A stretch of DNA of 32,000 nucleotides from Gammaproteobacteria bacterium (GCA_002711845.1 PASF01000002.1:1-32000); one strand, 5' to 3'. Counted from the stretch's first letter, positions 1 to 15,546 are shown. Numbers and translations: made by a program. The notes: generated by a model not told the origin, from the sequence alone.

Positions 1-98
1 GACCTAATATGGCCCTTGGAGGCATAACCCCAAACCAGAAGCTGGCATTGGCCGCTTGATGTCTACTCTCAGGCGCAATTAAAAATGGGGGTATTACA
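1..98 (+). mobile_element. Right end of an IS3-family-like insertion sequence (3' end of a DDE/rve transposase plus terminal repeat); the element continues off the left edge
   Basis: The frame from nt 3 reads ...PNMALGGITPNQKLALAA followed by TGA at 57-59, the typical tail after the YNxxRPH motif of rve transposases. A degraded second copy of this tail (RRKYNNERPHTGIGGVPPRRLLMAA*) lies at 15411-15488. Each copy is followed ~40 nt later by the same terminus, AAAATGGGGGTATTACA, ending at 98 and at 15528. Beyond that terminus the two flanks diverge. The terminus ends in CA, as IS3-type right ends do. Confidence 0.6.
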
Positions 99-110
99 AC
101 TACAATTACT

Positions 111-156
111 GGAAATCTTATCAGGGCGTTTGTTCTGAATTTGGGGGGTAAGGTCA
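111..156 (-). repeat. Solo IS left-end (IRL-like) fragment, copy A of a dispersed ~45-bp repeat
   Basis: The reverse complement reads TGACCTTACCCCCCAAATTCAGAACA... This aligns with copies at 10244, 15290 and 23421 (consensus TGACCTTnCCCCCnnATTTAGAACnATGnCCTTnnTGAGATTGGA). It is an imperfect inverse of the IS right terminus (TGTAATACCCCCATTTTCAAC). Confidence 0.5.
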
Positions 157-225
157 CACGCTTACAAAATGGGGTAGGCCCTAATTCTTGACTAACTTGG
201 ACGTCGGCGTAGAACTTAAATGCTA

Positions 226-1296
226 TCAGTTAACTTCAAACCCATACTCCAAGAGCCAATTTTTAAGTCTTTGTACAGTAACGTATCGAGCCCCCGTACC
301 TCTATAAATATCTAGTAAGTTGGAGTAATTTGCACGTATCCTTCTTGCCGCTGTGATCGCTTTTGTCTTGCTGCTACAACACAAAGCAAAGAGGCAGTCA
401 GACAACTGGGTTTCTTCGTGTAACTCCAGCGGTTGTATAAAGTCTAATTTTGGTATGCCAACCCGCGTCAATAGAACTACATGTCCGGATACACGGCCAT
501 TTCTACTAGCCCCTATTTTAATGGAGGAGGGCTGCTGACCCAACACTAAGTCTTTTAGGTCAGTGGAATGAACAAAAGGGATAGAGTCCCTACCGCGGCC
601 GCTCTTCGCAAAGTGTACTGGCATACTCCCCCTAACCAAATTGACTTTGATACTATCTGCGACGGAAATAGTATTCACACTAGAACCTTTGGCCTTTACA
701 CCAGGTAATATTTTTATAGCGGTAGATCGTACCCGGGCTCCCCTAAAGGTCTCATTGTGCAGCTCGCCGATAATATGGATGCTGTATCGGCTCTCTATGT
801 AATGCCTAGCGGCTGCATCCAACTCAGAAAAAAGAACTGATTCAGGTGCTATCACCATAGCACCATTTTTTGGCTTGAAAAGCTCTAGACTTTTTAGAAT
901 ATTCGCCATTGCGATGCTAGATTTTAAATGATGTCCTTCATAGGTAACTTGTACAGATTTTTGGTTGCCTTGACTAAAGGGTGGGTTAAGAAGGAGTAAA
1001 TCGCAACGAGCTCCAGCGTTGGCAGCCAAAGTGCTTTTGTAACTGCGATCTTTTAGAATTTCGCCTACCGACAAAATCCAACCAGGATTTTTCCTTCTCA
1101 GCGCTGAGATCGCATTTCGGTCGCGGTCAAGCCCAATGCATTGAGTCTCTCGGTAAACATTCGATGCAGCAGCAAGTAGATTGCCCGTACCGCAGGTAGA
1201 ATCGACAGCGACGCATGCTTCTCCGCGGAACTCTTTTAACAAGAGTTCCTCAGCCAAGCTTATAGGGGTATAGTACCGATCAAGGTCAACTTCCAC
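226..1296 (-). CDS. N6-adenine DNA methyltransferase, gamma-class motif order (Eco57I/TaqI-like)
   Basis: Motif I DSTCGTGNLL (about 1180-1210) precedes motif IV LLLNPPF (974-994), and the YYTPxxLAEELL N-terminal motif is present. The ~190-aa C-terminal region is a presumed target-recognition domain. I place the start at GTG 1296, which has GGAGG 6 nt upstream and overlaps the upstream stop by 11 nt. The ORF-track start at 1482 would overlap the upstream gene by ~200 nt and adds a non-protein-like extension. Confidence 0.85.
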   Translation of the reverse strand: MEVDLDRYYTPISLAEELLLKEFRGEACVAVDSTCGTGNLLAAASNVYRETQCIGLDRDRNAISALRRKNPGWILSVGEILKDRSYKSTLAANAGARCDLLLLNPPFSQGNQKSVQVTYEGHHLKSSIAMANILKSLELFKPKNGAMVIAPESVLFSELDAAARHYIESRYSIHIIGELHNETFRGARVRSTAIKILPGVKAKGSSVNTISVADSIKVNLVRGSMPVHFAKSGRGRDSIPFVHSTDLKDLVLGQQPSSIKIGASRNGRVSGHVVLLTRVGIPKLDFIQPLELHEETQLSDCLFALCCSSKTKAITAARRIRANYSNLLDIYRGTGARYVTVQRLKNWLLEYGFEVN

Positions 1297-2230
1297 CCAG
1301 CGCCTCCGAGAAATCGTAGATGTGAATAGTTCCGATTCCTGATGTCCTTCCTTTCTTTTTAATGGGGTGGTCAAAGAGGATTTCGGTGAATTCAGGATGA
1401 GCGATCGCATACCAGATTGCTCCCAGCCCATGTGGCTTTGTACCAACTGGGGCAATATACATGTACGCGTCGGGGTTATCACGGTGAATCATACCTAATG
1501 TTTCGTATAATTCGAATGGACAACTTGCTCGTGAGTATCTTATATCCGAATGAGCTTGAAACTCGTCTAATACCTCCTGATTACATGTGATTGTATAAGT
1601 AGGAAACTCAACTTGAAATCCTGGGACACCAATCACTGGAATAACGCGCGGTGCTGGATCTAACGGATATATCAGCGATCTAGGCCGATTTCCCTCAAAT
1701 CCAAGCAACGCTACAAAAACACTTTTTCGTTGCATGGATGGATCCTCAAGTTTCGCAAATCCTGGCAACGGTGCTGGGCCTGAAAACTCAGAAGACAAGT
1801 CAAATGTAGTGTATGAAGAGGGGTTCTTGTGCAAGCGGTACGATTCAGGCTCTGCGTACAGAACTCGAAGTTTGATCTTAGAGTCGAAAGCCGCTTTGAA
1901 GATTGGGGCCCAAATGTTGTAAGGCAATCCAGATATATCTAGTAATATTTCCTTGCCTGATAGTATGGACTTAAGCTTGTCTTGATCGAGAATCGAGATC
2001 ACTATTTCTTCTTCAAATTTTGTATTAACACATATATCTTCTGCACCAAATCTTGTGATTTGAATGTATTCATGACGCGAAGAATGTTTAATTTCCTCCC
2101 AGATCGTCATGGACCCTCGATCGTCCATTCTTTCATCCGAAAAAATGACGCATTCGAATTCCCCAATGTCCTCAAGGGATAGGGCGTTATACCTCAGCGT
2201 GTGAGTAGCCGGACGAATTACGCTAAGCAA
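1286..2230 (-). CDS. Hypothetical protein, 314 aa, Rossmann-like C-terminal half (possible CARF/SLOG-like ligand-binding fold; tentative)
   Basis: The ORF runs uninterrupted between the ATPase and the MTase. It has a TTG start with GGAG 7 nt upstream, and stops lie just upstream in frame. Alternating beta/alpha-type segments include VFVALLGFEG, VIPVIGVPG and YMYIAPVGTKPHGLGAIWYAI. The last resembles the xTGGTK loop-helix seen in CARF-type domains. I could not recognise a nuclease motif. Confidence 0.65.
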   Translation of the reverse strand: MLSVIRPATHTLRYNALSLEDIGEFECVIFSDERMDDRGSMTIWEEIKHSSRHEYIQITRFGAEDICVNTKFEEEIVISILDQDKLKSILSGKEILLDISGLPYNIWAPIFKAAFDSKIKLRVLYAEPESYRLHKNPSSYTTFDLSSEFSGPAPLPGFAKLEDPSMQRKSVFVALLGFEGNRPRSLIYPLDPAPRVIPVIGVPGFQVEFPTYTITCNQEVLDEFQAHSDIRYSRASCPFELYETLGMIHRDNPDAYMYIAPVGTKPHGLGAIWYAIAHPEFTEILFDHPIKKKGRTSGIGTIHIYDFSEALGGS

Positions 2231-2271
2231 GAAGCGTCTCCTGCGGCTTTGACCACGGCATTATCACTCCC

Positions 2272-4164
2272 TTAATTGTTCTTTGCATCGTCGTAAAATG
2301 CTGAAAAGAAAGCCAATTGCTCGGGCAACTCTTCGTCCGATGACATATTTTGCTTCTTTAGCAGAGAATTAATTGCCTTAGAAGGGTTACCATCCACTGC
2401 GGCAAGAAGGTGTTTGGCCTCGAACTCAGTTCTTCTCTTCTTCCTATAGGAAATTTCGAAGAATCCAGTAAAAATTCTGTGTAGCCTATACTCTTCATCT
2501 TGTAACTCTACATCGGTTGTATCTTTTGTTCTCGGAGAGACTTCGAATGCCAAATGACCGACGCCATCTCGTAATAGCCTTGAGATGTTCCTAAGGTCAT
2601 CAGGCTCACCCTTTAACACAAACGAAACGGTCTCGGGAGACCTATTGGCTGGCGATCTGGCTAGCTCAAAAAAAACTTTCCCTATTGCTAGGACTAACCG
2701 CTTTAATTTCACACCATTGTCGGCGAGGCCTTCCAGCTGATCCAGTCTACGCCTACCCACATCCCGCAACGAAAGAGTTTGTGACTTGGCAGAGAGTAAT
2801 AATTCCTCCGGCAATACATCTGGCGAATTCTTAAACTCATGAGCAATTGCTGAATCGATAAGCTCCAGAAAGTATCGAATATTTTCACCAGAGAGGGCTA
2901 ATATCGTGTTCAAGCCGCTATAATACTTCCTGATTCGCACTCCCTTTTTGCCTTTTGTTACCCAAAATAGGCTGGCATAACCGTGATTACCCAACCGAGT
3001 AGCCCATTTATCAATGTTCTTTTTCCAATCTTTAGCGAGGTTTAGAAGCGTGTCACCACTCTTCTCTTGCCAATACTTCAAGAAGTAAACTTCGTTGTCA
3101 GGTCTAGTCTGTATAAAGTCATATATGTCAGAATCGCTCTGACTTAATTCACCGCGAACGATTTCTGCAATTTTTCCGACGCCAAGCTTCATGGCTTCTT
3201 GGGCAAATGTCATATTTTCAAGGAATTGATCAATTCTTGGGGGTACATTTAGACCATTTTGCTTGGCGAACTCTAGTCTTTTATTGGCGACTCCGGTCGC
3301 GAAAAGATCGAAACCCTCATCCGAGATTTGAATTTCCCCGTAATCATCCGGGGTTTTTAGCAGGTCGTTTACGTCTAGGGTTTGATGATTCCTAAGGCCG
3401 TATCGTCTAACCCCAACTTTATAAGAAAGTGGGGGTTCAGCATGTTTAATATACGTATTTAGGACTGCTTGCTGGTGGTTTAGAAGATTCTCATACTCGT
3501 CGATACAGCAAAAAATTACCCGTTCCCCTAGCAATTCATGTTTTTCGAGAGCCTCAACAAACACTCGTAGTGGCGACTCGGGCATAGACATTAGCACTGA
3601 AGTCGTATTGTGCGGGTTGTTAACATACAATTGTAGGGCAGATATTCCGCTGTCAGCTAATCGTATAAGCTCATCAATGGTGCTACACGCTCCAAGTCCA
3701 AGATCTTCTGACACTGCGGATATCGCACTGCTAGGAAGCTCCTTCTCAGTTTGATCCTGCAGCCACCCGGCCATTTTAGCTAGTTCTTTGCAAACGATTA
3801 AATTGAAATAGTGAGCAAAGCATTTGTTCCACTGCTCCTCGCCAAGTACCGCCCCTTTAAAAGCGTGAACTCGGTTCTTGTTCATTCGAATCAAGATTCC
3901 AAGGTACTGTTGATCACTGAAGGAAAACCCGTCCGACACGAGTCTTGCTAACGTCTCTTCATACTTCAGTGATTGAAGTGCTGTTGTTTTTCCCGTACCC
4001 CTGCCTCCAACAAGTAAGCTTGGTCGAGATGATTGAAGCTTCTTTAAATAACTTGGGGGGACAAACAGCTCACTAAAGACTGCCTCTGACCACTCGGCTC
4101 GATTTTCACCAAAAAGCTGCCGAAGAAAGGTAATCTCATCTTTCGGTAAATTATAATCTTTCAA
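2272..4164 (-). CDS. P-loop NTPase, ORC/Cdc6-like AAA-type ATPase, 630 aa
   Basis: Walker A is LLVGGRGTGKTT (about 3981-4014) and Walker B is VIFCCIDEYENL. A long alpha-rich C-terminal region follows. The TTG start has GGGAG 7 nt upstream and overlaps the upstream gene's stop by 14 nt. Confidence 0.85.
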   Translation of the reverse strand: MKDYNLPKDEITFLRQLFGENRAEWSEAVFSELFVPPSYLKKLQSSRPSLLVGGRGTGKTTALQSLKYEETLARLVSDGFSFSDQQYLGILIRMNKNRVHAFKGAVLGEEQWNKCFAHYFNLIVCKELAKMAGWLQDQTEKELPSSAISAVSEDLGLGACSTIDELIRLADSGISALQLYVNNPHNTTSVLMSMPESPLRVFVEALEKHELLGERVIFCCIDEYENLLNHQQAVLNTYIKHAEPPLSYKVGVRRYGLRNHQTLDVNDLLKTPDDYGEIQISDEGFDLFATGVANKRLEFAKQNGLNVPPRIDQFLENMTFAQEAMKLGVGKIAEIVRGELSQSDSDIYDFIQTRPDNEVYFLKYWQEKSGDTLLNLAKDWKKNIDKWATRLGNHGYASLFWVTKGKKGVRIRKYYSGLNTILALSGENIRYFLELIDSAIAHEFKNSPDVLPEELLLSAKSQTLSLRDVGRRRLDQLEGLADNGVKLKRLVLAIGKVFFELARSPANRSPETVSFVLKGEPDDLRNISRLLRDGVGHLAFEVSPRTKDTTDVELQDEEYRLHRIFTGFFEISYRKKRRTEFEAKHLLAAVDGNPSKAINSLLKKQNMSSDEELPEQLAFFSAFYDDAKNN

Positions 4165-5104
4165 TTAAAGGCTCCCATCCCTCAATTCCAGGGGACCAGA
4201 ATATTGGTAATGTTGCATCTGGGATAGAATGTTCGAACCCGATAAGCAACCCCCTATTCTTATATCCGTATTTCAAATAAGACGGTTGGCCGGCCATGTA
4301 ATCTTCTTTGGGCGTTAATTTTTTCGAATATTTTTCAAGAAAATGTTCGGTGCTGTCGCGATCTATTAACCCGGCATTGGCTAAACCGCAGACTGTTGAT
4401 TTCTCTGTGAGCACGTGGGCAGGACAAACCGCAACATTAGGAGCACGCCGGTTGATTTCAGCAAGCCCATAATCCGTCGTCACAAGAGTAATGTAGATCG
4501 CGTTGTACCCAATTTCACGATGGATAGTGGCAAATGACTCCCCTCTTCTGTTATACGCTCGTGTCCAGGTTTCAAGGAATTGGTCACCACTCCCCACAAA
4601 ATCATCGACAAATATTATTGTATCTCCTTGCCGCGCCTTCTCGATGCCTGTGCGGGTATCAATCATCATTTCATCGGTCATACGAAGTATTTGTCTTGCC
4701 TTGCGACAAAATAAGTACCCTGAATCCGTGGGTCTAGGTGTCTCGCCTTCAACAGGGGTTATCCAAGATCTTTCCAGTCCACCCAATAGCAATTCTCTGT
4801 TAGGAACGTTAGGACCCTTTGGAAACCCGTCAGCCACAGATTGCCAGGCAGATCTAAGCATCGCATTTACAGTAAGACTGTTGCAGTATGTGAATCGATC
4901 AAGAAGGCTAGCAGCAATTACCTTGTCGGGCGAGTCAAAGTTGTTCAGCCACGCAACAGGCCTCATGGCTGGCGGCGACGGCCATAACCCTCCTCTTTTT
5001 AATATCTCGCACTTTTGCTCGACCATTCGTATGGCTATGTGATCCCGCAATCGGATACTCCCCGCGCGACTTCTTCCGCATATGATAATAAGTGTAGCAT
5101 TCAA
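4151..5104 (-). CDS. Phosphoribosyltransferase-fold (PRTase-like) protein, about 300-317 aa
   Basis: The PRPP-loop-like signature TIIFVDDFVGSGDQF (about 4581-4625) matches the hhhhDDxxxTGxT pattern of type I PRTases and ComF-like proteins. The start is ambiguous. TTG 5104 lacks an RBS, TTG 5050 has GGGGAG 7 nt upstream, and ATG 5026 is also possible. Confidence 0.7.
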   Translation of the reverse strand: MNATLIIICGRSRAGSIRLRDHIAIRMVEQKCEILKRGGLWPSPPAMRPVAWLNNFDSPDKVIAASLLDRFTYCNSLTVNAMLRSAWQSVADGFPKGPNVPNRELLLGGLERSWITPVEGETPRPTDSGYLFCRKARQILRMTDEMMIDTRTGIEKARQGDTIIFVDDFVGSGDQFLETWTRAYNRRGESFATIHREIGYNAIYITLVTTDYGLAEINRRAPNVAVCPAHVLTEKSTVCGLANAGLIDRDSTEHFLEKYSKKLTPKEDYMAGQPSYLKYGYKNRGLLIGFEHSIPDATLPIFWSPGIEGWEPLIERL

Positions 5105-5231
5105 ACTATGAGGTGATGCTGCTAATAGCTGTAGTTTCCATCAATTTAAGCAAAACCCCCGCCATTCGTTTACTTCTTCTCGCATAATTGATTGATGCCT
5201 TTTTGTACTGCCTGAACTCCTTTCTGAGCGA

Positions 5232-6404
5232 TTACGCCGGGTAAAGTTTGGGTAGCCATCGCTCGCGTGCCTTGGGTGGAAAACCAAGACGAACCGGGCT
5301 CTTTGGTCCATCGGAGACAAGGTACCCCTGTTTGAGCAACTCAGCCAATACATCGCGCGCCTGACGCTCTCCATAGTTCGTAATTTCTTGAGCATCGCCT
5401 CTCTTATACTGCCCACGCAGCAGCGCCTGCTGCAGCAGCGGCCATGATGCTTTGTGCAGTTGCCCAAATTGGATCTCCTCTTTGATGTGGATCTCCATGC
5501 GGATACGTAGGGTATCCAAGTCAAGAAGCTCACTCATGAAATCGATCTGATCAATGCACGATTCCAGGAAGAATTGACAGAAATTGACCAGCTCCCTGTG
5601 GCTGAGATTGCCCCGGCCGTCAAGATCGCCTTTTCTTGGCGAGTCAGCGGCCATCAGCCGCTCTTTGTAAGTCTCCACATTTCGAGCCAGCCCCCTTGAG
5701 ACTGACCAAAGCGTGCTGCCTATTTCAAGCTCGCGCAAAAAGGCATGAGAGAAAAGCCTGGCAACCCGGCCATTGCCGTCAAGAAACGGGTGGATCCAGG
5801 CCAACCGGTGATGCGAAGCCCCTATGGCGATGACCTGTTTTACCTTGGATAGTCTGCCTAGGTCATACGCCTGCTCAAATCGGCCCATGAATCGATCCAG
5901 ATCCTCTGGCCGCGGCGGTATATGTCGACCCACCTGCACATCATCCTCCCTGAACTGACCAGGCACAACCGAGATTACTTTGCCGGTGTGCTCATTTTTT
6001 ACCTGCAAAAGCTCCTTTGGCAAGCGCACACAAAACTCTTTGTGAACCCATTTGATGTACTCCCCATAGGGCGCCAGTGGCGGCGCCGCATTCTCATCAA
6101 TCATCGTTTGCACTTCGATGTGTGCCACCGCCTCCTGCTGCAGGTTGCGCTGCTTAGGATCGCTTGAGAAGTCCTGCGCCATCGCCTTTTCAATGCTGAT
6201 TGGGTGAGTATCGTGACCCTCGATGAGGTTGCTGTAGTAGCAGTTCATCGAGCGCACCAGATCCCCAATGCTTTGCGCAACGGCTGGATCCAGTCGTGAT
6301 GCAAGGGCTGACCCTTTGCGAATAAGATCAAAGGCTAGGTCTTCAAGCTCTTTGATGTCTTCATTTGGAAGCATTGGCTCCATTAAGTAAACGTCCGCTG
6401 CCAT
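5232..6404 (-). CDS. fic: Fic-family AMPylase (adenylyltransferase), class II auto-inhibited type
   Basis: The canonical Fic motif HPFLDGNGRVAR lies at about 5757-5792. The N-terminal inhibitory-helix motif S-N-L-I-E-G matches (S/T)xxxE(G/N). The C-terminal tail looks winged-helix-like. Confidence 0.92.
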   Translation of the reverse strand: MAADVYLMEPMLPNEDIKELEDLAFDLIRKGSALASRLDPAVAQSIGDLVRSMNCYYSNLIEGHDTHPISIEKAMAQDFSSDPKQRNLQQEAVAHIEVQTMIDENAAPPLAPYGEYIKWVHKEFCVRLPKELLQVKNEHTGKVISVVPGQFREDDVQVGRHIPPRPEDLDRFMGRFEQAYDLGRLSKVKQVIAIGASHHRLAWIHPFLDGNGRVARLFSHAFLRELEIGSTLWSVSRGLARNVETYKERLMAADSPRKGDLDGRGNLSHRELVNFCQFFLESCIDQIDFMSELLDLDTLRIRMEIHIKEEIQFGQLHKASWPLLQQALLRGQYKRGDAQEITNYGERQARDVLAELLKQGYLVSDGPKSPVRLGFPPKARERWLPKLYPA

Positions 6405-6500
6405 TCTTTTTGCCGGTATATTTGCCGAATAGAAAATATAGTAACTTATTGATAATAATTAGGCTACCCTAATATTCTACGAGATAAGAAGGAGGTTTTC

Positions 6501-6530
6501 GCCGGTAAAATTGCCGTATCATTTGCCGGC
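6501..6530. promoter_or_regulatory. Candidate operator palindrome upstream of fic
   Basis: The site reads GCCGGTAAA-N12-TTTGCCGGC. It is conserved with compensating changes upstream of the fic remnant at 13184-13212 (GCCGGTAAT-N12-ATTGCCGGA). A partial third copy lies at 6411-6427. Confidence 0.3.
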
Positions 6531-6768
6531 TCAAGGGAGCTAAGGGTCGTGTACTGAAAGGAAAAGGCCGGTTGCGCTCAAAATGGGCTAGAAATCTCCA
6601 TAAACCAGGGGGAAAGTCCATTTCCTATTAGTAGCCCAACTACAGTTACATTTACAATCTCTGCATTCGGCCAGAAATCTGGTTTTCCATCGGCTCCATG
6701 GCGGCTGCAAAAACTAGGCTAAATCAAGGATCAAAAAGCGATGCATATTCAATCTAATGGAGGAGTCT

Positions 6769-7383
6769 ATGAACTCTAATCAGCAAGGACGGGCAAGTCA
6801 GGCGGTTCTTGATAACATCAAACAGGCCGTGGAGAAAAAATACCCTCACGCACAAATCGAGTTAACAGCCCTTCCTGGTGTCATCTCCGCTGTGGTTTTC
6901 ACCCAAGACAAACGAACGCTTGAAAGCGTGTATGCCCAGCGAGATATCAATGCTCTGGCGCATCGCTCGGGCGGGCTCAGTGATGAATTTTACACCAGCA
7001 TGGTGTTTTACAGCGATCGCAAAGACCTTGCCCGAAGAAAGGTCTTCTCCTTTATCGAGCCAAAGCTTCAAGATATCTCCAAGAATTACCATGTTGATGT
7101 CGAGGTGGGCATAAACGGAAAAACCCTGAGCGTTCGGGTTATCGGCTCTCGTGATTACATGGAGGCATTCAAGGCCAAAGTAAGGGATATGAGTCCGGAG
7201 ATGTTAAGGCTTTCTGAGTGTCGACAGGTCAATACGTATTTCAGCACCGGCTATGAGCTTGAACCCGGGGAAAGGTATCAAGCAGCGGATGAGGATAATG
7301 ACGACGACCCGATCAACCCTAACTGGCCCAGCACAACAGGCAACCCATCGGGCGGCGGCCGGGGCAACAACCCGCCCAAGTGA
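6769..7383 (+). CDS. Hypothetical protein, ~204 aa, with an acidic/Gly-Asn-Pro-rich tail
   Basis: The ORF looks coding by eye, and GGAGG lies 5 nt upstream of ATG 6769 (the ORF-track start at 6757 overlaps this RBS). I recognise no motif. Confidence 0.6.
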   Translation: MNSNQQGRASQAVLDNIKQAVEKKYPHAQIELTALPGVISAVVFTQDKRTLESVYAQRDINALAHRSGGLSDEFYTSMVFYSDRKDLARRKVFSFIEPKLQDISKNYHVDVEVGINGKTLSVRVIGSRDYMEAFKAKVRDMSPEMLRLSECRQVNTYFSTGYELEPGERYQAADEDNDDDPINPNWPSTTGNPSGGGRGNNPPK

Positions 7384-7391
7384 GCGGCTCA

Positions 7392-7414
7392 GGGGCGGCC
7401 AATCAAGCCGCCCC
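7392..7414. terminator. GC-rich hairpin between convergent genes
   Basis: The sequence is GGGGCGGC-caatcaa-GCCGCCCC, an 8-bp perfect stem. It sits 9 nt after the stop at 7383 and 22 nt from the stop of the minus-strand gene at 7436. The T-tract is weak. Confidence 0.45.
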
Positions 7415-7435
7415 ATCTTACAGCACCAGATTTTA

Positions 7436-7729
7436 CTAGGCGGCTCCCAGCACGCGCACCTCACGCACCGCCCGGCCCTTTGGCCTGTAAAGACCATTTC
7501 TCTTTCCATCAGCCGAGGCGCATCGAACAGCAAACCCGTCAATTAACACTTTCTGAATCATAGTCTGCTCGTCGACCTCTTCGCATGCGTCAATGGTATT
7601 GCCCGCATCGGAGACACGAAAGGTGGTTCTTCCATTATCTCTACGCGTCATTTTCACCGGGTAAATCATTGCACCATCGACAAGCACAAAGGCTATTTTC
7701 TTGGACATCATCTCTTGAGATACTGGCAT
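7436..7729 (-). CDS. Hypothetical small protein, 97 aa
   Basis: AAGGAG lies 6 nt upstream of ATG 7729. I recognise no motif. Confidence 0.6.
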   Translation of the reverse strand: MPVSQEMMSKKIAFVLVDGAMIYPVKMTRRDNGRTTFRVSDAGNTIDACEEVDEQTMIQKVLIDGFAVRCASADGKRNGLYRPKGRAVREVRVLGAA

Positions 7730-7994
7730 TGTTAGCTCCTTTTTTCGGGTTGATTGCCAGGCTGTTTCTCAGCACTGGCCAGTTGTGTTGCTTGCATCGC
7801 GTTAACGCAAAAACGTGCTGTCTTTCCAGCTGTCAGCCATTCACCCCTGGGTCCGAACACGAGCACGCCTGAAGCATGCGCAGCTCGAGCCCTGCTTTTT
7901 AAAGGTCCTTCGGTGATAAGTCGAAGGCAGAGTACAAAAGTGGGCATGGTTGCGGGTGTTATATGCGCCACCTCCCGCTGGGCTATTCAACAAC

Positions 7995-8681
7995 CTAATG
8001 GCAATAAGAGTTGTAAATTTCCACCAGCACCTGGCGCGCCGGCGCTGTTTTAAGGGCCATACCAGGCTTGAACTTTCTTCGCGACAACAGCCACTGCCGC
8101 GCCTTTGTCGCACGAATCAGCGTGATCCTGCTGTCAGCATTATGCTCGGCGCCAAGTTCCCGGTGCGCAAAGTTCCGCACGCTTTTCTCCTTCATCCGCG
8201 CCAGCAGGGCAACCTCTGCAATGCTTAAAAAAGTCTCCTCACCGCTGTACAGCGCTGCGTCTAGCTTGAGCCGGGCAAAGAACATGTTGAGCACGACCTT
8301 CATCCCGTAGGCAGGTTGGGTTCCCCCCATCGACTCGCTCAGGCAAGTGAAAAGCTCGTTGTAGGCAATAAAAGCATTCAGTTCGCCGCCAAAATCGGCA
8401 TGGTAATTCTCACCAACTTCCTCCCCCTGGTAGGTCAGTGAAAAATAAGGGATGCCTTCAACTGCATAATTGAAGAATCGCTTGGGGATGAGTGTCGACA
8501 GCTCTACTGAATCTACAAAGATATACTGAGCAACGCCCATGAGCTGATGCGAGGCATCATCGATCTGCTGCAGGTATGTCTCCAGCGAGAGGTTCTCATT
8601 GGCAGCTTCATATAGACTCCTTTCAGCAGCGCTGATCTGCGCGTACAAAACTTCTTCGGGTGTTCGGCTAATTTGTTCCAT
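7995..8681 (-). CDS. Hypothetical protein, 228 aa, possible C-terminal helix-turn-helix
   Basis: It is a long ORF with protein-like composition. The segment LSIAEVALLARMKEKSVRNFA looks HTH-like. It has the same orientation as the 97-aa gene downstream. Confidence 0.6.
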   Translation of the reverse strand: MEQISRTPEEVLYAQISAAERSLYEAANENLSLETYLQQIDDASHQLMGVAQYIFVDSVELSTLIPKRFFNYAVEGIPYFSLTYQGEEVGENYHADFGGELNAFIAYNELFTCLSESMGGTQPAYGMKVVLNMFFARLKLDAALYSGEETFLSIAEVALLARMKEKSVRNFAHRELGAEHNADSRITLIRATKARQWLLSRRKFKPGMALKTAPARQVLVEIYNSYCH

Positions 8682-8971
8682 TTAATTATCCATTTAATAT
8701 CACAATAAGGTAATACTAGCCCCAATTATGTTATCTGTAAATAGTTTTGATGGAATATTATTTGATTTTTTAGAGGTTGTTCTTCGTATTTGGCGGTTTC
8801 CCCGGGGGAAGACAGTGTTTTTCTCTATCACTGCGCCGCACAGAGTGGAATTGACTGCAAGGTTCACCGTGCCCTACGAACGTTAGAGTCCTTGTGAATA
8901 TGGCAACCGTGTGTTGAATCGCCTATTATCGAGGAAATAGGCTGGATTGGACTGATCAATGGACGCAGATT

Positions 8972-10108
8972 ATGAAAACAGGCAAGCCAGTTTTTCTGAT
9001 GTTGTTAACGCTGCTGTTTCCGATTGAAATGAAAGCACAGGATCCCAGAGCAGAATTTCACTCCCCACTGGCAGAAGCCTGGTATAAGGTCGGCGACTAT
9101 TTCGAGTGGACCTCCACCGTTGCTGGCAACGACGGCGCACAGGTGAGCGTGTTCTATCGCACCTTCGGCGATCCGAATAATCCGCAGCTTTTGATGCTGC
9201 ACGGCTTTCCCAACTCCAGCTTTGATTACTACCGGCTGATCCCGCTACTGCAAAACGACTACTACATCGCGGTGCTGGACTTTCCCGGTTCGGGGTTTTC
9301 CGACAAGCCCTTGGATGGCTTTTCTTATATGTTGGAAGATAACGCCCGGCTAGTGGACCACTTCGTTCGCGAGGTCATCGACTTCGATGACTTTGCCCTT
9401 TATACCCACGACCGGGGTGTGAGTATCGGGCTGTCGTTTCTGGGCTTGTATCTGGATAACCCGAACCCGGACTACACCATCAATTATCATTTTCTCTCCA
9501 ATAGCGGCATGTACCTGCCCTTGGCCAGCCTGGTGCCGTTTCAGCTCGCGTTGCTGGATGCCGAGGCAGGACCGGCAATGATTGCCCGGCGCCGGGCGCG
9601 GCCACGGCTGACCGAGGGCGATCCTCAGGATGTGGCTTATTCCGACATCTTTGCCTTCAACGATGGCGACACCGCGCTACTGCACGTTGGGCGCTACCTG
9701 CTGGAGCGCCAGGTACACGAGCAACGCTGGCTGAACAACCTGCCGCGTAGTCCGGTGCCGGTGGCCTATCTGTGGGGCCTGCAGGATACAGTGAACCCAG
9801 TGCGCATCTCGCAGTATGTGTGGATGAACTACCTGAATGAGCGCGTCGCGCCCAGCTCCTACTGGCTGCTGCCATTGGCGGCGCATTACCCGCAGCGCGA
9901 GTCGCCCGAGGCGGTGGCCAAAATCGTGCGTCTGGCACTTGAAGGCCAATTGCCTGACCGGGAGGGGGAGGCGGATTTTATGCGCGAGTATGCGGCAAAT
10001 CGTGAAGCGAGCGACGCGGTGTTTGTGGGGCACACTTCGGTGCGGGACCCGGATTTTCCGAGCTCGATCGAGTATACGCCGGAGGGGTATCGGGTGGTTG
10101 AGCACTGA
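8972..10108 (+). CDS. Secreted alpha/beta-fold hydrolase (epoxide hydrolase / dehalogenase-like)
   Basis: The N-terminal signal-like segment is MKTGKPVFLMLLTLLFPIEMKAQ. The oxyanion-region motif is LMLHGFPNSSFDY. The nucleophile-elbow YTHDRGVSIG carries an Asp nucleophile, as in epoxide hydrolase and fluoroacetate dehalogenase relatives. GC is visibly higher than in neighbouring island DNA. Confidence 0.8.
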   Translation: MKTGKPVFLMLLTLLFPIEMKAQDPRAEFHSPLAEAWYKVGDYFEWTSTVAGNDGAQVSVFYRTFGDPNNPQLLMLHGFPNSSFDYYRLIPLLQNDYYIAVLDFPGSGFSDKPLDGFSYMLEDNARLVDHFVREVIDFDDFALYTHDRGVSIGLSFLGLYLDNPNPDYTINYHFLSNSGMYLPLASLVPFQLALLDAEAGPAMIARRRARPRLTEGDPQDVAYSDIFAFNDGDTALLHVGRYLLERQVHEQRWLNNLPRSPVPVAYLWGLQDTVNPVRISQYVWMNYLNERVAPSSYWLLPLAAHYPQRESPEAVAKIVRLALEGQLPDREGEADFMREYAANREASDAVFVGHTSVRDPDFPSSIEYTPEGYRVVEH

Positions 10109-10243
10109 TTCAATCTGTGTCGATGTAAAAGAGTTATATTACGTAAGTGACCTAGCCCGCAATTAAAGCGGACAGTGCGTTTGATGCTAAGACTTAGGCA
10201 TAGCACTAGGCCTAAAGAGTGCACAAGAAAAGATAGGATCGAC

Positions 10244-10345
10244 GACCTTGCTCCTGAATTTAGAACCATGGCCTTAGTGAGATTGGACAGTTCCAGTGCC
10301 CGGTAACTGAGATCTGACCTCCTCCCCAATCAAACTAAACGCAAT
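10244..10345 (+). repeat. IS left-end fragment, copy B (IRL-like repeat plus ~50 nt of IS leader)
   Basis: GACCTTGCTCCTGAATTTAGAACCATGGCCTTAGTGAGATTGGA aligns to copies A, C and D. The following CTGACCTCCTCCCCAATCAAACTAAAC matches 23961-23999, which precedes the IS orfA remnant at 24050. Confidence 0.5.
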
Positions 10346-10359
10346 AATTCGTCTAATGT

Positions 10360-11430
10360 TTAGAAGCGACTCATGTATTGGTCAAACTTAGACCTTTTAT
10401 CTCCAATCAACTTGAGGAGGTCAATAGTTACGTAGACACTTTCCTCATCTCCGTGGTCAGCCCAGCCAATGGAGTAACGGTTATCGAAATGGAGTAAAAA
10501 ACCATGGCCGACATCATCGACTTCCGCGCGGTCGGCATAGACACTCGCGACAGAAAAACCGAAGGGTAGTTTCAAGTCCCAAAAATTGACTCCTAGCCAT
10601 TCCACAGCTAAACCAAACTCCGTATTATTGCCATCCGCGGCTTTATCCATACTGTTATAAATGACCTGTGGATGCAAAGCGATAACTTGATAACTGGGTG
10701 GTCCTACAAGGTGATCGGAACGGAAATGACCACGGTGTGCTAGTGTGGTAAACCAGACCTCCAGCAGCGTCTGAGATTTGCTGACCTCTAAGAACTCATC
10801 CCAGTTTTTTGCCATGCCCGAAAGTAACGTAGTATTATCATAAAGCCTGTCATAGGCAGATCGGTAGGGATTGAATGCATCTGCGAAATCGTTGAATAGG
10901 TCTCTACAGCTTTTGTTAGCCGCAGCGGACACACACAGACCAGTATCCGTAACAGTGAAGCGGCTTAGGCTGTTTGGATGCGGTTCGAAATAGCCCACGG
11001 CTTCATCAGATAAAACACCGTCTTCTAGGATAAACTCCGGCAGAACGGGATTGCCAATATCGAAGTTACTGAATGTGGTTTGAAGTCCAACAAATTGTTC
11101 GGAGTAATTTGCGGACTGTAGTAGTCCCTTACTGTCCAAAGCCTTCTCCGCCTCGGTGGCATAGTTAGATAACAAGTCACGCGCCAGGTCGTTGTACAAG
11201 TCGGTCAACATGTTAGTAGTAAGGGTGTTGTCGATGCGTGATCGGATCAATTGGATACACAGGTCCTCTCCGGTTTTTCTCCCCAGCGTGTATAGGGCGG
11301 AGAATTCACTTCCTGGATAGGAATCAATACTACAGTCGATAGCTGTTTGTTCTTCAGCGTTGGTAAGCTGAAACGAGAACGCGAATATTAGAGTTGCAAA
11401 AAATGATATAAAAACGCTACGCTTATCCAT
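10360..11430 (-). CDS. Secreted protein of unknown function, ~356 aa
   Basis: ATG 11430 has AGGAGG 9 nt upstream, and that RBS overlaps the stop of the upstream lipase-like gene. The N-terminus MDKRSVFISFFATLIFAFSFQLTNA looks like a signal peptide. Confidence 0.7.
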   Translation of the reverse strand: MDKRSVFISFFATLIFAFSFQLTNAEEQTAIDCSIDSYPGSEFSALYTLGRKTGEDLCIQLIRSRIDNTLTTNMLTDLYNDLARDLLSNYATEAEKALDSKGLLQSANYSEQFVGLQTTFSNFDIGNPVLPEFILEDGVLSDEAVGYFEPHPNSLSRFTVTDTGLCVSAAANKSCRDLFNDFADAFNPYRSAYDRLYDNTTLLSGMAKNWDEFLEVSKSQTLLEVWFTTLAHRGHFRSDHLVGPPSYQVIALHPQVIYNSMDKAADGNNTEFGLAVEWLGVNFWDLKLPFGFSVASVYADRAEVDDVGHGFLLHFDNRYSIGWADHGDEESVYVTIDLLKLIGDKRSKFDQYMSRF

Positions 11431-11443
11431 GGTTACACGCCTC

Positions 11444-12487
11444 CTAATCGTTGCCGCCAAGTTCAGCGGATATTCTTTCTATTTCGGACTGTAACTTTTT
11501 GTATTGCGCTATTGCTTTCTTTATCTCCGAAATGGAAGGGTCGTCCCGAAGCTTTTTGATCATATCGCGGAGTGCTTTAACCTCGCCTTTCAGTGTTTTT
11601 TTCTTGTATGCTTCTACGCAAAGAGCATTCTGGTCCTCGGTAACATTTACTCCATATATAAAGCGCATTAACGCTCTGGCAACTTTAGGCTCCGTAATGT
11701 ATTCGTAGAAATCATGAGTGTTCACGTTTCTAATTAGAGAGCTTTCCAGCGTTACTCCGTCCTTCATTTTTCTGTCGTACTGCTTGAACCAAGTAAAAGG
11801 GTCGTATTTATGGCTAATGTTAATAAGATTACGCGCACAGCCCTCCGCTCCGGTACAAACGGTAGATGACATTGGGTCAGATTGGCCATTGAGTAAGTTG
11901 ACCATACGACTAACATTTGCGAAGGTCCATAAGGAGGCGATATTGAAGTTGCCTGGTTTCAAGTCCGGAATATCGTCGTAGGGGTCAGACTCTACTCTGT
12001 AATATTTCGACAATGCATCGTGAACAACAGCTGTGCCGAGTGAATGGCAGATGATATGGATATTCTTATGACCATATTTGAGGCGCTTTGCTTCAAATAA
12101 GCTGAGGAAGTCTACACGTATCTTTTCACCAAAATAAGTAGTGGAGTACAAGATTACGTCCAACATGTGCGTATAGAAAAATTCGTCCTTTCCCATATTC
12201 GCTTCGAAGCTCGTCAGCTGTTTTAGCAAGCTCACCTCGAAACCTTTTCCAGTCAAAAAGCTAAAACCTGTTTTCCTAGCTTGGGCGTTTTCGGCGAATT
12301 GATTTCTTATTGCATCGAAAAAATCGCTATAGTTGAACTCTACGTAATCGACGGACTTTAGTTTCTCCTTTACATCTACAGCGAAACCTTCGGCTCGATC
12401 CGTTAAGCCTTGCTTGAAGGCTTTCTCCATTTCACCTTTGGGATGAGTCCCCATCCCATGCACCAGAATAATTAGCTGCTTAGCCAT
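11444..12487 (-). CDS. Cytoplasmic alpha/beta hydrolase, lipase/esterase-like (GxSxG), with a C-terminal coiled-coil-like tail
   Basis: It has LIILVHGMGTH near the N-terminus and the nucleophile elbow HIICHSLGTAV (about 12034-12052). Candidate Asp and His residues lie at KYDPF and NTHDF. There is no signal peptide. Confidence 0.8.
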   Translation of the reverse strand: MAKQLIILVHGMGTHPKGEMEKAFKQGLTDRAEGFAVDVKEKLKSVDYVEFNYSDFFDAIRNQFAENAQARKTGFSFLTGKGFEVSLLKQLTSFEANMGKDEFFYTHMLDVILYSTTYFGEKIRVDFLSLFEAKRLKYGHKNIHIICHSLGTAVVHDALSKYYRVESDPYDDIPDLKPGNFNIASLWTFANVSRMVNLLNGQSDPMSSTVCTGAEGCARNLINISHKYDPFTWFKQYDRKMKDGVTLESSLIRNVNTHDFYEYITEPKVARALMRFIYGVNVTEDQNALCVEAYKKKTLKGEVKALRDMIKKLRDDPSISEIKKAIAQYKKLQSEIERISAELGGND

Positions 12488-12906
12488 AGCTACTCCTGAT
12501 ATCGTTGTTAGTCTAAAGGAACTAATTTTGGATCTTTACGGTTGAGGCTCTGGCAACCTTTTTCTGGTATTACGAAACCGCAAGGTTACTATATTGACAA
12601 CGGTAAGTTCTTTTAACATGTATCGTTTGGCAAGCAAATAGCCCGAATGGGCTAGTGGTATCAGTCTATAGATACTATTAAATCGTTCGGTTGGAATGTT
12701 GCTAGAATAGATAATAACCTGAATTCATACAATATTTAGACCACGCTTTCCCTTTGGTAGAAAGGGGTTTTCTGAATCTATGGATATATAATTACGATTC
12801 TAATACCGAAGCACTCAGAAACAGTAATAGTTTTGTGTTATGCGCTAACAAAGGCAATTGAGTTGTATTGCCCGGCGCCCGGGGCCGAGAAAGTCTAGAT
12901 CAAACC

Positions 12907-13176
12907 TTAAAACCCCGCGACACTAATTTGCATCGTCTCAAAATGGCCTATTTTACTGACTGCTGAACTCGCTTTTGATTGTTTACGCCGGCTAGAGTTT
13001 AGTTGACCTCCTCTCGCGCGCCTTGGGCGGAAAACCAAAACGAACCGGGCTCTTTGGCCCATCGGAGACAAGGTAGCCCTGTTTGAGCATTTGCGGATAA
13101 GATCAAAGGCTATGTCTTCCAGCTCTTTGAAGTCCTCATTTGGAAGCGCTGGCTCCATTATGCAAACGTCTACCAC
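12907..13176 (-). pseudogene. Internally deleted fic paralog remnant
   Basis: Its first ~24 codons (MEPALPNEDFKELEDIAFDLIRK) match the fic N-terminus. At about 13090 the sequence jumps to DNA matching the fic 3' end (5147-5338), out of frame. This is equivalent to a ~975-bp deletion relative to 5339-6313. The upstream leader, including the GCCGG palindrome, is also conserved up to ~13290. Confidence 0.8.
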
Positions 13177-13495
13177 TATTTTCGCCGGTAATATTGCCGC
13201 ATCAATTGCCGGATAACGGGGCGCTAAGGGTTATGGCATTCAAAAGAGACAAAAGGCCGGCGGCACCCAAGATGGTCAGAAATCACCTTAAGATAGGGAG
13301 ATCCGTGACACTTATCTAAAGTGATTCGTTGAATCTGGGTAGAACTCGAGCTGATAGTGGTCAGATAATGGGTGTTTTTTTGAAAACGTGGCCCCGGCAA
13401 CTTTCGACCTACAATCAGGAGCCCTATTTTTTGCCAAAGTCTTTTACCATGCTTGATCCGTACGTAAAGGGCTCAAAATTGACAGTTTGTTACCA

Positions 13496-13524
13496 GGCTA
13501 TTGCCTGTGCGACAGGCAATAGCC
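13496..13524. terminator. Perfect 12-bp hairpin downstream of the 13576 gene
   Basis: The sequence is GGCTATTGCCTG-tgcga-CAGGCAATAGCC, ~50 nt past the minus-strand stop. No clear U-tract follows on either strand. Confidence 0.3.
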
Positions 13525-13575
13525 GTATCTTACGGAAAGAACTACATTTTTGGATTGAAAATTGACGTCTTGTGC

Positions 13576-13953
13576 TTACTGCGCATGAAAAATGTTAGAG
13601 CCCTCGGGCATCGCCCCGTATTCTCTAATTAGTTTGTCCGCTGTATGAACGAAGTCACCACTGGTTTGATCTGCAGTCCACAGCGGACGTGAACTGCCGG
13701 TAAATGAGCCGGGGTCGAGAAATGGCGAGAAATACGAATAAACAACCATGTAGATGTTCAATCCAACTCTCATTTGCGTGAAATCCATATCTTTCCAGGG
13801 AATCCATCCACTCTCTGTGAGGTACCAGTAGTTTTCTTTAGGCGAAACGGCTTTTGGATAGTATTTTTCGTTGGGCAACTCCTCTTCTAGGCCACTCTGT
13901 GTATGCAGTTCTTTTTCAAGTCCTATAACATTGGCTAGGGTTTTGTTTGTCAT
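13576..13953 (-). CDS. Hypothetical small protein, ~125 aa
   Basis: I prefer ATG 13953 (MTNKTLANVIG...), which has GGAGA 7 nt upstream. The longer track ORF to 14031 adds a Cys/Ser/Trp-rich, non-protein-like extension. No motif is recognised. Confidence 0.55.
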   Translation of the reverse strand: MTNKTLANVIGLEKELHTQSGLEEELPNEKYYPKAVSPKENYWYLTESGWIPWKDMDFTQMRVGLNIYMVVYSYFSPFLDPGSFTGSSRPLWTADQTSGDFVHTADKLIREYGAMPEGSNIFHAQ

Positions 13954-14030
13954 CGAATTTCTCCACGTATCAAGTTTTGTAAAACGAAGAGAAGATACAC
14001 TCCACGAACAGTGAAAAAAGGGACATCTCA

Positions 14031-15155
14031 TTGAATTTTACGAGTACAGCTGATGGCATACTTTTCAACAACCTTGTTTCCCTAATCTTCAGAGAAGCAG
14101 AAAGGGAGCGTACAACGGGAGAGGTTATACGGTCTGGCTTTAGCTTCGTTCTGAGAAGGAAGGTTGGCGCAGACTCGACTTTATTTAGAAAATTCTCGCA
14201 AAGCAAAATCCAACCCGAAGACGTCTGGTCATTCTTACGGAGGAATCTCACAGAGAATCAATTAAGCGAATTTAGCGATATCTTCGCAGATGAGGACTGG
14301 AGTGCACATGGAGATTGGGAGCTCATAGATAGAACAGCCAAAGCATTCATCGCCAAGGATCCGCGCGAGAGCACCGCGATATTTTGGTTTTTTTTGAGGA
14401 ACCTTTGCCGTAGCGAGCGTGAAATACACGCTCAGCTGAGTCAGCTATCGGGTGATAAGCTAGTGTTGACTTCATTTTACAATGGCATGGTTGAACGCAT
14501 AATGATTCTACCAGGTTTTGATTGTCAAGACCCATTCAGCCGTCAGAAATATTTGGTCGCTCGAGTGCTCTATTGGGCGGCACTAGTGGAACTTTACTTG
14601 CGTGTTTCAAGCGAAAAGTACAGAAAGGATATAGGGAATGAAAAAGCAGCACTTACTTTTTTCTTACCGCAGGCAACCAACGATAAAGCTCTAATAAGAA
14701 GCGTAGAAGTATTCCTGAATAAACAAAAGCAGATATGGGCATATCAGTGCGGAAAAGAGAAAATAACCGACAAGCGCTTCTTTGAGGACATAACAAACGC
14801 ATCACTTAGTCCTCGGCAACGCGAAAAAAATCCGGACATAAGTAAGGTCAAAAAGATATTCCAAAGATGGCGACGTGGGTCGCCGCTGAGACTTGTAAAT
14901 TTAGAGAAATTTATAGACCCACTATATTCAGCAAAGAGCATGACATTACGGAACGAAGTTACAATCTTGATGATTCCTATAATAAACCTATTCGACTATG
15001 TTCAGCGTCAACTATTGATGCAGGGACTCTCCAATACAGAGATTGAGTCAATGTTTAAAGAATATAATAGATACGTAGATTTGGTAACTCAGGCCTATGA
15101 ACGGACAACGCATAACATTAACTTTATTGACTACGATATCGAAGCCAAACTGTAA
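14031..15155 (+). CDS. Hypothetical protein, 374 aa
   Basis: It is a long ORF with protein-like composition throughout. The only plausible start is TTG 14031, with AGGGA 7 nt upstream, because the first in-frame ATG is ~150 codons in. No motif is recognised. Confidence 0.6.
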   Translation: MNFTSTADGILFNNLVSLIFREAERERTTGEVIRSGFSFVLRRKVGADSTLFRKFSQSKIQPEDVWSFLRRNLTENQLSEFSDIFADEDWSAHGDWELIDRTAKAFIAKDPRESTAIFWFFLRNLCRSEREIHAQLSQLSGDKLVLTSFYNGMVERIMILPGFDCQDPFSRQKYLVARVLYWAALVELYLRVSSEKYRKDIGNEKAALTFFLPQATNDKALIRSVEVFLNKQKQIWAYQCGKEKITDKRFFEDITNASLSPRQREKNPDISKVKKIFQRWRRGSPLRLVNLEKFIDPLYSAKSMTLRNEVTILMIPIINLFDYVQRQLLMQGLSNTEIESMFKEYNRYVDLVTQAYERTTHNINFIDYDIEAKL

Positions 15156-15289
15156 TCCTTCCATTTTCCATCAATCGTCAAAGTAGACTTGCTAGACTCC
15201 TGGACATCCATCTAACGCTTATGAAGGCCATTGGGTTCTTTCGCCCGATAACTTAGGCGGAATCGCACAATAAAGATCTATGATCCAGC

Positions 15290-15528
15290 TGACCTTTCCC
15301 CCAAATTTAGAACCATGGCTTTAGTGAGATTGGATTGACCCAAGTGGCCGGCAAATCCGGAGTCAATTCGGTAGGACTCTAAATCGCGCTGCTACTCAAT
15401 TTCGGGGTGACGTCGGAAATACAATAACGAAAGACCCCATACAGGCATCGGCGGTGTACCACCACGACGACTACTGATGGCAGCATAAGTTTCTACGAGT
15501 AACTGCTGTTGAAAATGGGGGTATTACA
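15290..15528 (+). mobile_element. Internally deleted (MITE-like) derivative of the IS3-like element
   Basis: It starts with IRL-like TGACCTTTCCCCCAAATTTAGAACCATGG (copy C). It contains only the last ~25 codons of the transposase (15411-15488, YNNERPH...MAA*). It ends with the same AAAATGGGGGTATTACA terminus as the IS at 1-98. Confidence 0.6.
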
Positions 15529-15546
15529 ATTGCTATCCACCTAATA

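Follow-up and report, generated by a model that had tools for sequence, protein, structure and literature searches.

A four-gene cassette on the minus strand

The stretch of DNA analyzed here (hereafter, the window) comprises 32,000 nucleotides (nt) of a Gammaproteobacteria bacterium from a Tara Oceans marine metagenome lineage (GCA_002711845.1; PASF01000002.1:1-32000). Its minus strand carries four closely packed open reading frames (ORFs) that form the cassette studied here; they are predicted to encode a phosphoribosyltransferase (PRTase)-like protein, an ORC/Cdc6-like ATPase, a 314-amino-acid (aa) protein of the CARF6 family, and an N6-adenine methyltransferase (MTase) (Table 1). An earlier inspection of the DNA (hereafter, the sequence-only reading) had proposed an undescribed, methylation-linked defense system. 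We find that the locus is a member of a widespread, experimentally uncharacterized cassette, the novelty of which had been overstated.

Table 1. Predicted cassette genes and other features of the window.
Feature	Position	Strand	Remarks
PRTase-CE family phosphoribosyltransferase-like protein	4151..5050	-	299 aa from TTG 5050; ORF reaches 5104
ORC/Cdc6-like AAA+ ATPase	2272..4164	-	630 aa, TTG start
Stand-alone CARF6-family protein	1286..2230	-	314 aa
Gamma-class M.TaqI-like two-domain N6-adenine methyltransferase	226..1296	-	356 aa from GTG 1296
12-codon ORF	2225-2260	-	ATG at ~2260
IS3-type transposase, C-terminal end	1-59	+	rve_3 integrase core, E = 6e-23
Fic-domain gene	5232-6404	-	Pfam Fic, 2e-17
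ORF without Pfam match	6757-7383		
ORF without Pfam match	7436-7729		
ORF without Pfam match	7995-8681		
Alpha/beta hydrolase gene	8972-10108		Pfam match
ORF without Pfam match	10360-11460		
ORF without Pfam match	11444-12487		
ORF without Pfam match	13576-14031		
ORF without Pfam match	14031-15155		
ORF without Pfam match	15547-17286		
1811-aa protein	17910-23345	+	FGE-sulfatase domain, InlB-type B-repeats, class 3 lipase domain

The PRTase likely starts at the TTG codon rather than at 5104, because a public gene call (P0241) is identical to the shorter product (100% identity and coverage) and the homologues are about 298 aa long. The MTase ORF opens at 1482, and we place its true start at the GTG codon, which is preceded by GGAGG, because this equals public call P0121 and agrees with homologue lengths of about 355 aa. 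Read with these starts, the PRTase and ATPase genes overlap by 14 nt (4164 vs 4151), the ATPase and CARF6 genes are separated by 41 nt (2271..2231), and the CARF6 and MTase genes overlap by 11 nt (1296 vs 1286). These junctions are exactly those that the sequence-only reading had given, and all motifs it had quoted are present in the window proteins and invariant among homologues. The packing of the genes and their co-localization across genera and phyla also support its view of them as one co-transcribed unit. A promoter and terminator scan of the locus returned signal at background level only.

The 12-codon ORF, with AAGGGAG before its ATG, lies mostly inside the 41-nt gap, and its 3' end runs, in another reading frame, into the TTG start of CARF6. 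It may serve as a leader or coupling ORF or have arisen by chance. In most orthologous loci the ATPase and CARF6 genes overlap, unlike in the window.

Conservation of the cassette across genomes

A CARF6 alignment was searched against one genome per species (185,579 species), which yielded 80 loci, and the four window proteins were then used as queries against every ORF of these loci. In 64 of the 80, the genes followed the order PRTase-ATPase-CARF-MTase on one strand, with orthologues of the window MTase in the same position (E down to 1e-108). Four loci had a methylase-first order, and the others were cut off at contig edges, had decayed, or carried a different methylase. Co-localization across genera, which the sequence-only reading had named beforehand as a point on which it could fail, is thus what we observed. 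The loci came from Gamma-, Beta-, and Alphaproteobacteria, Myxococcota, Acidobacteriota, Actinomycetota, Planctomycetota, Bacteroidota, Spirochaetota, Verrucomicrobiota, Nitrospirota, Chloroflexota, Elusimicrobiota, and others (more than ten phyla). The pairwise identities of the four families were correlated (r 0.78-0.91; 69 complete loci), and every catalytic or binding motif of the four proteins was invariant among homologues. Because the four families share their order in so many independent loci, the arrangement is far beyond chance, and we conclude that it is a conserved module whose families travel and evolve together.

A methylase was almost always part of this module. At four loci (L041, L048, L051, and L059) the cognate MTase was missing, and a clearer N6_Mtase/Eco57I-type enzyme, related to the MTase of a Klebsiella plasmid subfamily described below, lay beside or near the cassette; only L042 had no methylase within 8 kb. 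In two decayed loci (L063 and L072) the MTase was kept and the PRTase and ATPase were lost or fragmented. Clustering of 818 flanking ORFs revealed no universal fifth gene, and the conserved cassette ends with the MTase. We therefore reject the suggestion that an insertion sequence (IS) next to the window MTase had removed a nuclease or another partner. No nuclease family (PD-(D/E)xK, HNH, PLD, or other) was detected in the four proteins by Pfam, NCBIfam, and PADLOC scans, in line with the sequence-only reading.

Family assignment of the four proteins

The PRTase matched Pfam PRTase-CE (PF24390; E = 1e-45) over the full profile and PADLOC PRTase_III-A (E = 4e-27). The motif of its phosphoribosyl pyrophosphate (PRPP) loop, FVDDFVGSGxQ, was invariant in 74 homologues (DD in 73-74 of 74, G-S/T-G and Q in 74 of 74). 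The protein had previously been likened to ShosT and PsyrT, a likeness not borne out here: neither PF00156 nor PF15610 was matched in Pfam, and neither ShosT nor PsyrT in PADLOC. The ATPase matched Pfam ORC-CDC6-like (PF24389; E = 7e-110) over residues 17-579. Its Walker A (GGRGTGKT) and Walker B (DE-x-E) motifs were invariant among homologues, with GK[T] and DE present in every ungapped sequence (74 and 75 of 77, respectively), and its matches to the Sll1717 family, DS41_1, mad8, and PDC-M28C were all sub-threshold. For both proteins, a PDB sequence search returned no significant relative of solved structure.

In one Thermoanaerobaculia locus (L043, 978-2681), a second PRTase-CE paralogue of 567 aa lies directly upstream of the regular PRTase gene; it has a C-terminal extension of about 300 aa to which no fold was assigned.

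The 314-aa protein, which the sequence-only reading had left without assignable motifs, can be assigned. It matched PADLOC PDLC01913 ("CARF6") over its full length (E = 9e-93) and had no Pfam match; the CARF6 clade reportedly stems from the CARF census of Makarova et al. 2020. An AlphaFold2 model built with 18 homologues (predicted local distance difference test score, pLDDT, 82.6; predicted template modeling score, pTM, 0.86) predicts two domains, a small beta-rich one at the N terminus and then a CARF Rossmann-like one. The top PDB matches of this model in Foldseek were CARF domains of Csm6, Cam1, Card1, and Csa3 (probability 0.85-0.99), and no effector fold matched the N-terminal ~90 aa. 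The sole PDB profile match was a DUF1887 protein (E = 0.065), a family that we take to be the Can2/Card1 CARF-nucleases. CARF-like signatures, a strand followed by ISGLP and a later GTKPH, were invariant in 81 homologues, as was the motif LGFEG-R. The family includes 977 clusters at 50% identity in a library of 1.84 billion proteins, nearly all of about 310 aa with no fused effector domain. With moderate to high confidence, profile and model together identify the protein as a CARF protein. This identity shifts the likely logic of the cassette toward the sensing of a nucleotide ligand and away from the purely methylation-gated scheme first proposed.

The MTase matched Pfam MTS (E = 6e-7) and N6_Mtase (21.5 bits vs a cut-off of 20.4), with the motif order X (YYTP), I (CGxG), and IV (NPPF); NPPF was invariant in 76 of 76 homologues. 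Profile searches matched METTL5 (an rRNA N6-methyladenine, or m6A, methylase), M.BseCI, and HsdM. In Foldseek, its AlphaFold2 model (pLDDT 87.6) aligned over the full length and both domains with M.TaqI, M.BseCI, and CamA (E 1e-9 to 1e-6; template modeling score 0.5-0.6). Fold and profile matches thus indicate a gamma-class N6-adenine MTase, as the sequence-only reading had it, and one that is TaqI-like.

Whether its substrate is DNA was considered separately. METTL5 was the best profile match (E = 2e-10), the MTS match was stronger than the N6_Mtase match, some homologues are labeled "predicted RNA methylase" or TrmN6 in their sources, and a non-variable C-terminal domain would suit a fixed substrate. 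These points would be expected if the enzyme methylated RNA (rRNA or tRNA) or a free nucleotide, with immunity or regulation acting through that methylation. The METTL5 match spans the catalytic core only (residues 5-126), whereas the full-length, two-domain structural likeness is to DNA enzymes, and a sister subfamily matches type II DNA MTase and type I specificity profiles. We thus regard an RNA or nucleotide substrate as very improbable, and the modeled structure suggests that the MTase most probably acts on DNA.

Restriction-modification (R-M) methylases vary most in their target-recognition domain. In the cassette MTase, the mean pairwise identity of the C-terminal domain (32%) is close to that of the catalytic domain (33%), and the C-terminal motifs RG, H, RVG-P, SDC, and Y-GTGAR-T are invariant across phyla. 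Because this domain is as conserved as the catalytic one, alignment suggests one fixed target for the whole family. A fixed target would make a hard-wired reader possible, a role for which the ORC-like ATPase suggests itself.

These features bear on whether the cassette is a variant of conventional R-M, in which unmethylated DNA would be cut by a nuclease hidden in either the ATPase (C-terminal half) or CARF6 (N-terminal domain), with the PRTase and CARF folds as accessories. Such a variant could account for a nearly universal, dedicated DNA-type m6A methylase, for the methylase-first order on conjugative plasmids, and for conserved polar residues without an assigned role in the C-terminal half of the ATPase. 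We nonetheless judge it improbable, since the family scans found no nuclease match, the CARF6 model best matches CARF domains with no nuclease fold among its top 50 Foldseek matches, the invariant PRPP loop implies that the PRTase is catalytically essential, and the MTase specificity domain is constant, unlike those of R-M systems.

Association with dUTPase and ThyX genes

Using purpose-built hidden Markov models (HMMs), we found a dUTPase gene abutting the cassette in 20 of the 80 loci. The trimeric enzyme (PF00692) occurs in 11 loci (L019, L029, L030, L033, L035, L038, L043, L049, L050, L072, and L076), usually immediately downstream of the final cassette gene and in some cases with a 4-nt overlap. 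The dimeric all-alpha enzyme (PF08761) occurs in nine, always directly upstream of the PRTase, and also in an Acinetobacter locus outside the 80 (L045, L055, L056, L065-L068, L070, L074, and L086); the dimeric enzymes are 40-84% identical within a proteobacterial sub-clade. ThyX abuts the cassette in three loci (L029, L046, and L057), a 3-methyladenine glycosylase (Tag) in one, and a ribonucleotide reductase once. The start and stop codons of the dUTPase and ThyX genes often overlap those of cassette genes. A genome holds about one dut gene among thousands, and by our estimate chance would place a dUTPase next to the cassette in about 0.04 loci in 80. The HMM search detected no dUTPase or ThyX gene at the window cassette, and 75% of the loci, that of the window included, lack a dUTPase.

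The comparison establishes an obligatory methylase and a facultative dUTPase as features of the cassette. Because two non-homologous dUTPases have been recruited in different lineages, the gene adjacencies argue for a functional coupling of the cassette to dUTP, dUMP, or dTMP. No earlier description of the dUTPase/ThyX link was found.

Hosts, mobility, and neighboring genes

Homologues were found in Pseudomonas aeruginosa (66-67 contigs), Alteromonas, Stutzerimonas, Variovorax, and others, and the cassette is also carried by Acinetobacter and Stenotrophomonas. A plasmid protein search revealed close copies on Burkholderia, Paraburkholderia, and Moraxella plasmids and, on at least 129 mostly conjugative Klebsiella plasmids, a divergent ATPase; no near-identical DNA to the window cassette was present among the plasmids searched. 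On a K. pneumoniae plasmid (L087; OW959907.1, 2849-7900), annotation and family scans gave the order MTase, PRTase-CE, ORC-CDC6-like, CARF6. The MTase of this Klebsiella subfamily matches a type II MTase profile (E = 9e-66) and also type I specificity profiles. The identical Klebsiella cassette is present on four Escherichia coli transconjugant plasmids (NZ_CP181476.1 and others), where RefSeq lists an "N-6 DNA methylase" and three "hypothetical protein" entries. Since three of the four genes are labeled hypothetical, the cassette has no curated functional name as of late 2026.

Among 141 immediate neighbors, the commonest were phage-type integrases (n = 7), dUTPases, methylases, resolvases, and transposases. 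Single defense-gene neighbors included AbiEii, SIR2, types III, IIG, and IV R-M, PD-T4-6, PglW, and Upx. The claim of a defense-like setting therefore holds for the homologous cassettes, which integrases, transposases, and defense genes often adjoin; such neighbors fit a mobile conflict system and are not proof of defense.

On a mobilizable Burkholderia gladioli plasmid (L085; NZ_CP031453.1, 373-4349), a site-specific integrase and a DUF4433 and macro-domain pair (DarT/DarG-like) adjoin the cassette in a defense-island-like setting. Another record (L086; CAKLQF020000018.1), labeled "Acinetobacter phage MD-2021a", has efp, cstA, tRNA-Val, and metabolic genes around the cassette, a gene content that suggests a contig of a bacterial chromosome instead of a phage.

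The same neighborhoods could be read as those of a mobile module without an immune role, serving nucleotide pools or DNA modification (sanitation, a modified nucleotide, or dUTP/dTMP metabolism) or plasmid maintenance and addiction. Recurrent, fusion-like adjacency to dUTPase, ThyX, the Tag glycosylase, and in one case ribonucleotide reductase would suit such a module, as would carriage by conjugative plasmids and the fact that most immediate neighbors are not defense genes. Patchy spread over more than ten phyla with integrase and transposase neighbors is, however, typical of conflict systems, it is hard to see what plain metabolism would need an ORC-like ATPase or a CARF domain for, and three quarters of the loci do without a dUTPase. 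On balance, a non-immune role appears unlikely.

Comparison with known systems

No named system in PADLOC or NCBIfam matches the cassette or is defined from its parts, as the sequence-only reading had expected, and none of the DefensePredictor DS models in NCBIfam was reached (DS41_1 scored 16.5 bits vs a cut-off of 370). Our literature search found no description of the gene combination, with Makarova et al. 2020 NAR and Burroughs et al. 2015 NAR, both of which reportedly touch on CARF6/PRTase neighborhoods, outside its scope. The word "undescribed" is thus apt for the assembled system, which is unnamed, and not for its parts, which are catalogued in Pfam (PRTase-CE, ORC-CDC6-like) and PADLOC (CARF6, PRTase_III-A). 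Three window proteins match PF24390, PF24389, and the CARF6 models (PADLOC PDLC01910-01923) over their full length and far over threshold, as ordinary members.

With type III CRISPR-Cas cyclic oligoadenylate signaling (Csm6, Csx1, Card1/Can2, Cam1, and Csa3), the cassette has in common a CARF-fold nucleotide-sensor domain, the structural E-values for which are weak. Unlike those systems it has no Cas10, cas genes, or array, and its CARF6 protein has no fused effector. No CRISPR array was found in window positions 1-9000, no cas-like family among the window ORFs scanned, and no recurrent cas neighbor among the 141 flanking genes. A CRISPR linkage, hinted at by the PADLOC name PRTase_III-A, was therefore rejected.

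BREX, DISARM, and MADS share with the cassette an N6-adenine methylase of the self-marking type, a P-loop ATPase, and no obvious restriction nuclease. The cassette differs in lacking PglZ, BrxC, BrxL, DrmA, DrmB, and DrmC, is much smaller (four genes, 4.8 kb), and contains PRTase and CARF parts that are absent from those systems. Against the PADLOC BREX and MADS models it gave only marginal or generic matches, to PglX (E = 0.06), mad2 (9e-9, the generic MTase core), and mad8 (5e-4). Classical R-M systems (types I-III) differ from it by their restriction endonuclease domain, which the Pfam, NCBIfam, and PADLOC scans did not detect here. The two-domain architecture, motif order, and full-length fold of M.TaqI, M.BseCI, and CamA are common to the cassette MTase, which is only 11-13% identical to them and, unlike them, has a C-terminal domain invariant across phyla and is tied to three other genes.

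In common with ShosTA, PsyrTA, type III retrons, and Ophion OpnC, the cassette encodes, in a conflict context, a protein of the PRTase fold whose PRPP-binding loop is intact. PRTase-CE is, however, a family separate from the PRTases of these systems, and it is partnered by an ORC-like ATPase, a CARF protein, and an MTase, whereas the partners there are a DprA-like antitoxin, a reverse transcriptase, or a radical-SAM enzyme. ShosTA, PsyrTA, type III retrons, and Ophion provide the precedent for PRTase effectors, and ShosT reportedly interferes with both purine metabolism and the replication of DNA (bioRxiv 10.1101/2025.09.30.679545). The DefensePredictor PRTase system ("NADR") differs from the cassette, as it consists of a UPRT-like protein and NADAR.

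Proposed function and its main rival

The best explanation, which we hold with middling confidence, is that the locus is an intact copy of a four-gene conflict cassette that is widespread, moves horizontally, and would exclude phages or rival plasmids without cleaving DNA. The MTase would place m6A on a fixed DNA target as a self label, and because its target-recognition domain does not vary, a hard-wired partner could read this mark. The ORC/Cdc6-like ATPase may read DNA and act as an ATP-driven switch that is thrown when incoming or replicating DNA lacks the mark. The nucleotide chemistry of PRTase-CE would then stop replication, either by consuming PRPP or by making or destroying a mononucleotide, by analogy with the unrelated ShosT. 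CARF6 could bind a nucleotide ligand and thereby gate or terminate the activity of the PRTase or the ATPase. The facultative dUTPase and ThyX genes suggest that the PRTase chemistry reaches the dUTP/dUMP/dTMP branch of the pyrimidine pool, against which they might buffer the host. In sum, phages or rival plasmids would be kept out with their DNA left uncut. A role of the MTase as antidote fits the two decayed loci that kept it and the methylase-first plasmid order, although the evidence is thin.

The same parts could also be wired with swapped roles. In this arrangement, the PRTase would be a signal synthase that makes a mononucleotide from PRPP and a base, perhaps one derived from uracil or N6-methyladenine, CARF6 would be the receptor, the ATPase would be an effector that clamps or blocks DNA, and the dUTPase would clear the signal or a cross-reacting ligand. 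The PRTase is the sole cassette enzyme able to generate a nucleotide, with no cyclase nearby, and CARF6 lacks a fused effector domain in about 1000 clusters. The attachment of dUTPases of two folds points the same way, and signal-making PRTases were proposed for the Ter system by the Aravind group (PMC5512222). Characterized CARF ligands, however, are all cyclic or linear oligoadenylates rather than mononucleotides, PRTases with known defense roles are effectors or toxins, and the Pfam suffix "CE", the meaning of which we did not find, may mark an effector. This is the main rival explanation, one that the present data do not separate from the best explanation and that we consider possible but clearly less probable. 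We think it rather doubtful that the scheme holds in its most specific form, in which a PRTase-made mononucleotide second messenger (uracil or N6-methyladenine derived?) would be read by the stand-alone CARF protein to control an ORC-like DNA-clamping ATPase, independently of Cas10 and CD-NTase, with self exempted by fixed m6A and dUTPases clearing the ligand or a false ligand.

Several points weigh against the explanation by exclusion without cleavage. The E-values of the CARF matches in Foldseek are weak (3e-3 to 6e-2), and because the CARF6 family has unusually many invariant polar residues, the protein could be an enzyme rather than a sensor. No synthase of CARF ligands (Cas10 or CD-NTase) was found near the cassette. 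The MTase profile also fits an rRNA m6A methylase, so that DNA is only the probable substrate, and the C-terminal half of the ATPase may hide a cryptic catalytic domain. Near the cassette the window flanks consist of ORFs without a family match, and defense genes are a minority of the immediate neighbors across loci. The defense function itself is inferred from context alone, and the sensor, effector, and regulator roles of the single proteins are provisional assignments.

If the cassette is a defense or exclusion system, it would be a compact and nuclease-free one that joins epigenetic self-marking with CARF nucleotide sensing, which are usually found apart, and CARF sensing would here operate without CRISPR machinery. 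Its carriage by P. aeruginosa, Acinetobacter, Stenotrophomonas, and more than 100 Klebsiella conjugative plasmids means that it may influence phage therapy and clinical plasmid traffic. The dUTPase/ThyX link offers a concrete, testable handle on how the PRTase affects the nucleotide pool, the main open question for PRTase-based defense systems except ShosTA. With its parts already catalogued, the remaining interest of the cassette lies in its bringing together a PRTase and an ORC-like ATPase with a CARF protein that stands alone, in the fixed-specificity methylase, in the dUTPase/ThyX link, and in the clinical Klebsiella plasmids.

Flanks of the cassette in the window

The setting of the window copy was only in part as the sequence-only reading had described it. 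The cassette has a GC content of 44-46% inside a compositionally mixed window (39-64%) rather than in an island with sharp boundaries. Of the IS debris claimed on both sides, the downstream part was recovered as the C-terminal end of an IS3-type transposase, convergent to the MTase, which continues in locus record L081 (12172-12375); family scans of the window ORFs found none upstream. Several public assemblies of the lineage break about 90-370 nt past the MTase stop, which is consistent with a repeated IS.

The Fic-domain gene noted earlier is indeed present directly upstream on the same strand. It was rejected as a cassette member, a Fic homologue being found at 0 of 80 loci; it stands apart from the cassette and may be a toxin or defense gene in its own right. 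PADLOC classes it as SoFic-like (2.6e-28), yet it falls far under the NCBIfam SoFic cut-off.

Beyond it, about 11 kb of mostly low-GC DNA (6469-17286) carries ORFs of 97-579 aa without a Pfam match, the alpha/beta hydrolase gene being the sole exception, and this region is possibly a larger island of unassigned genes. It is followed by the 1811-aa protein, which is unrelated to the cassette.

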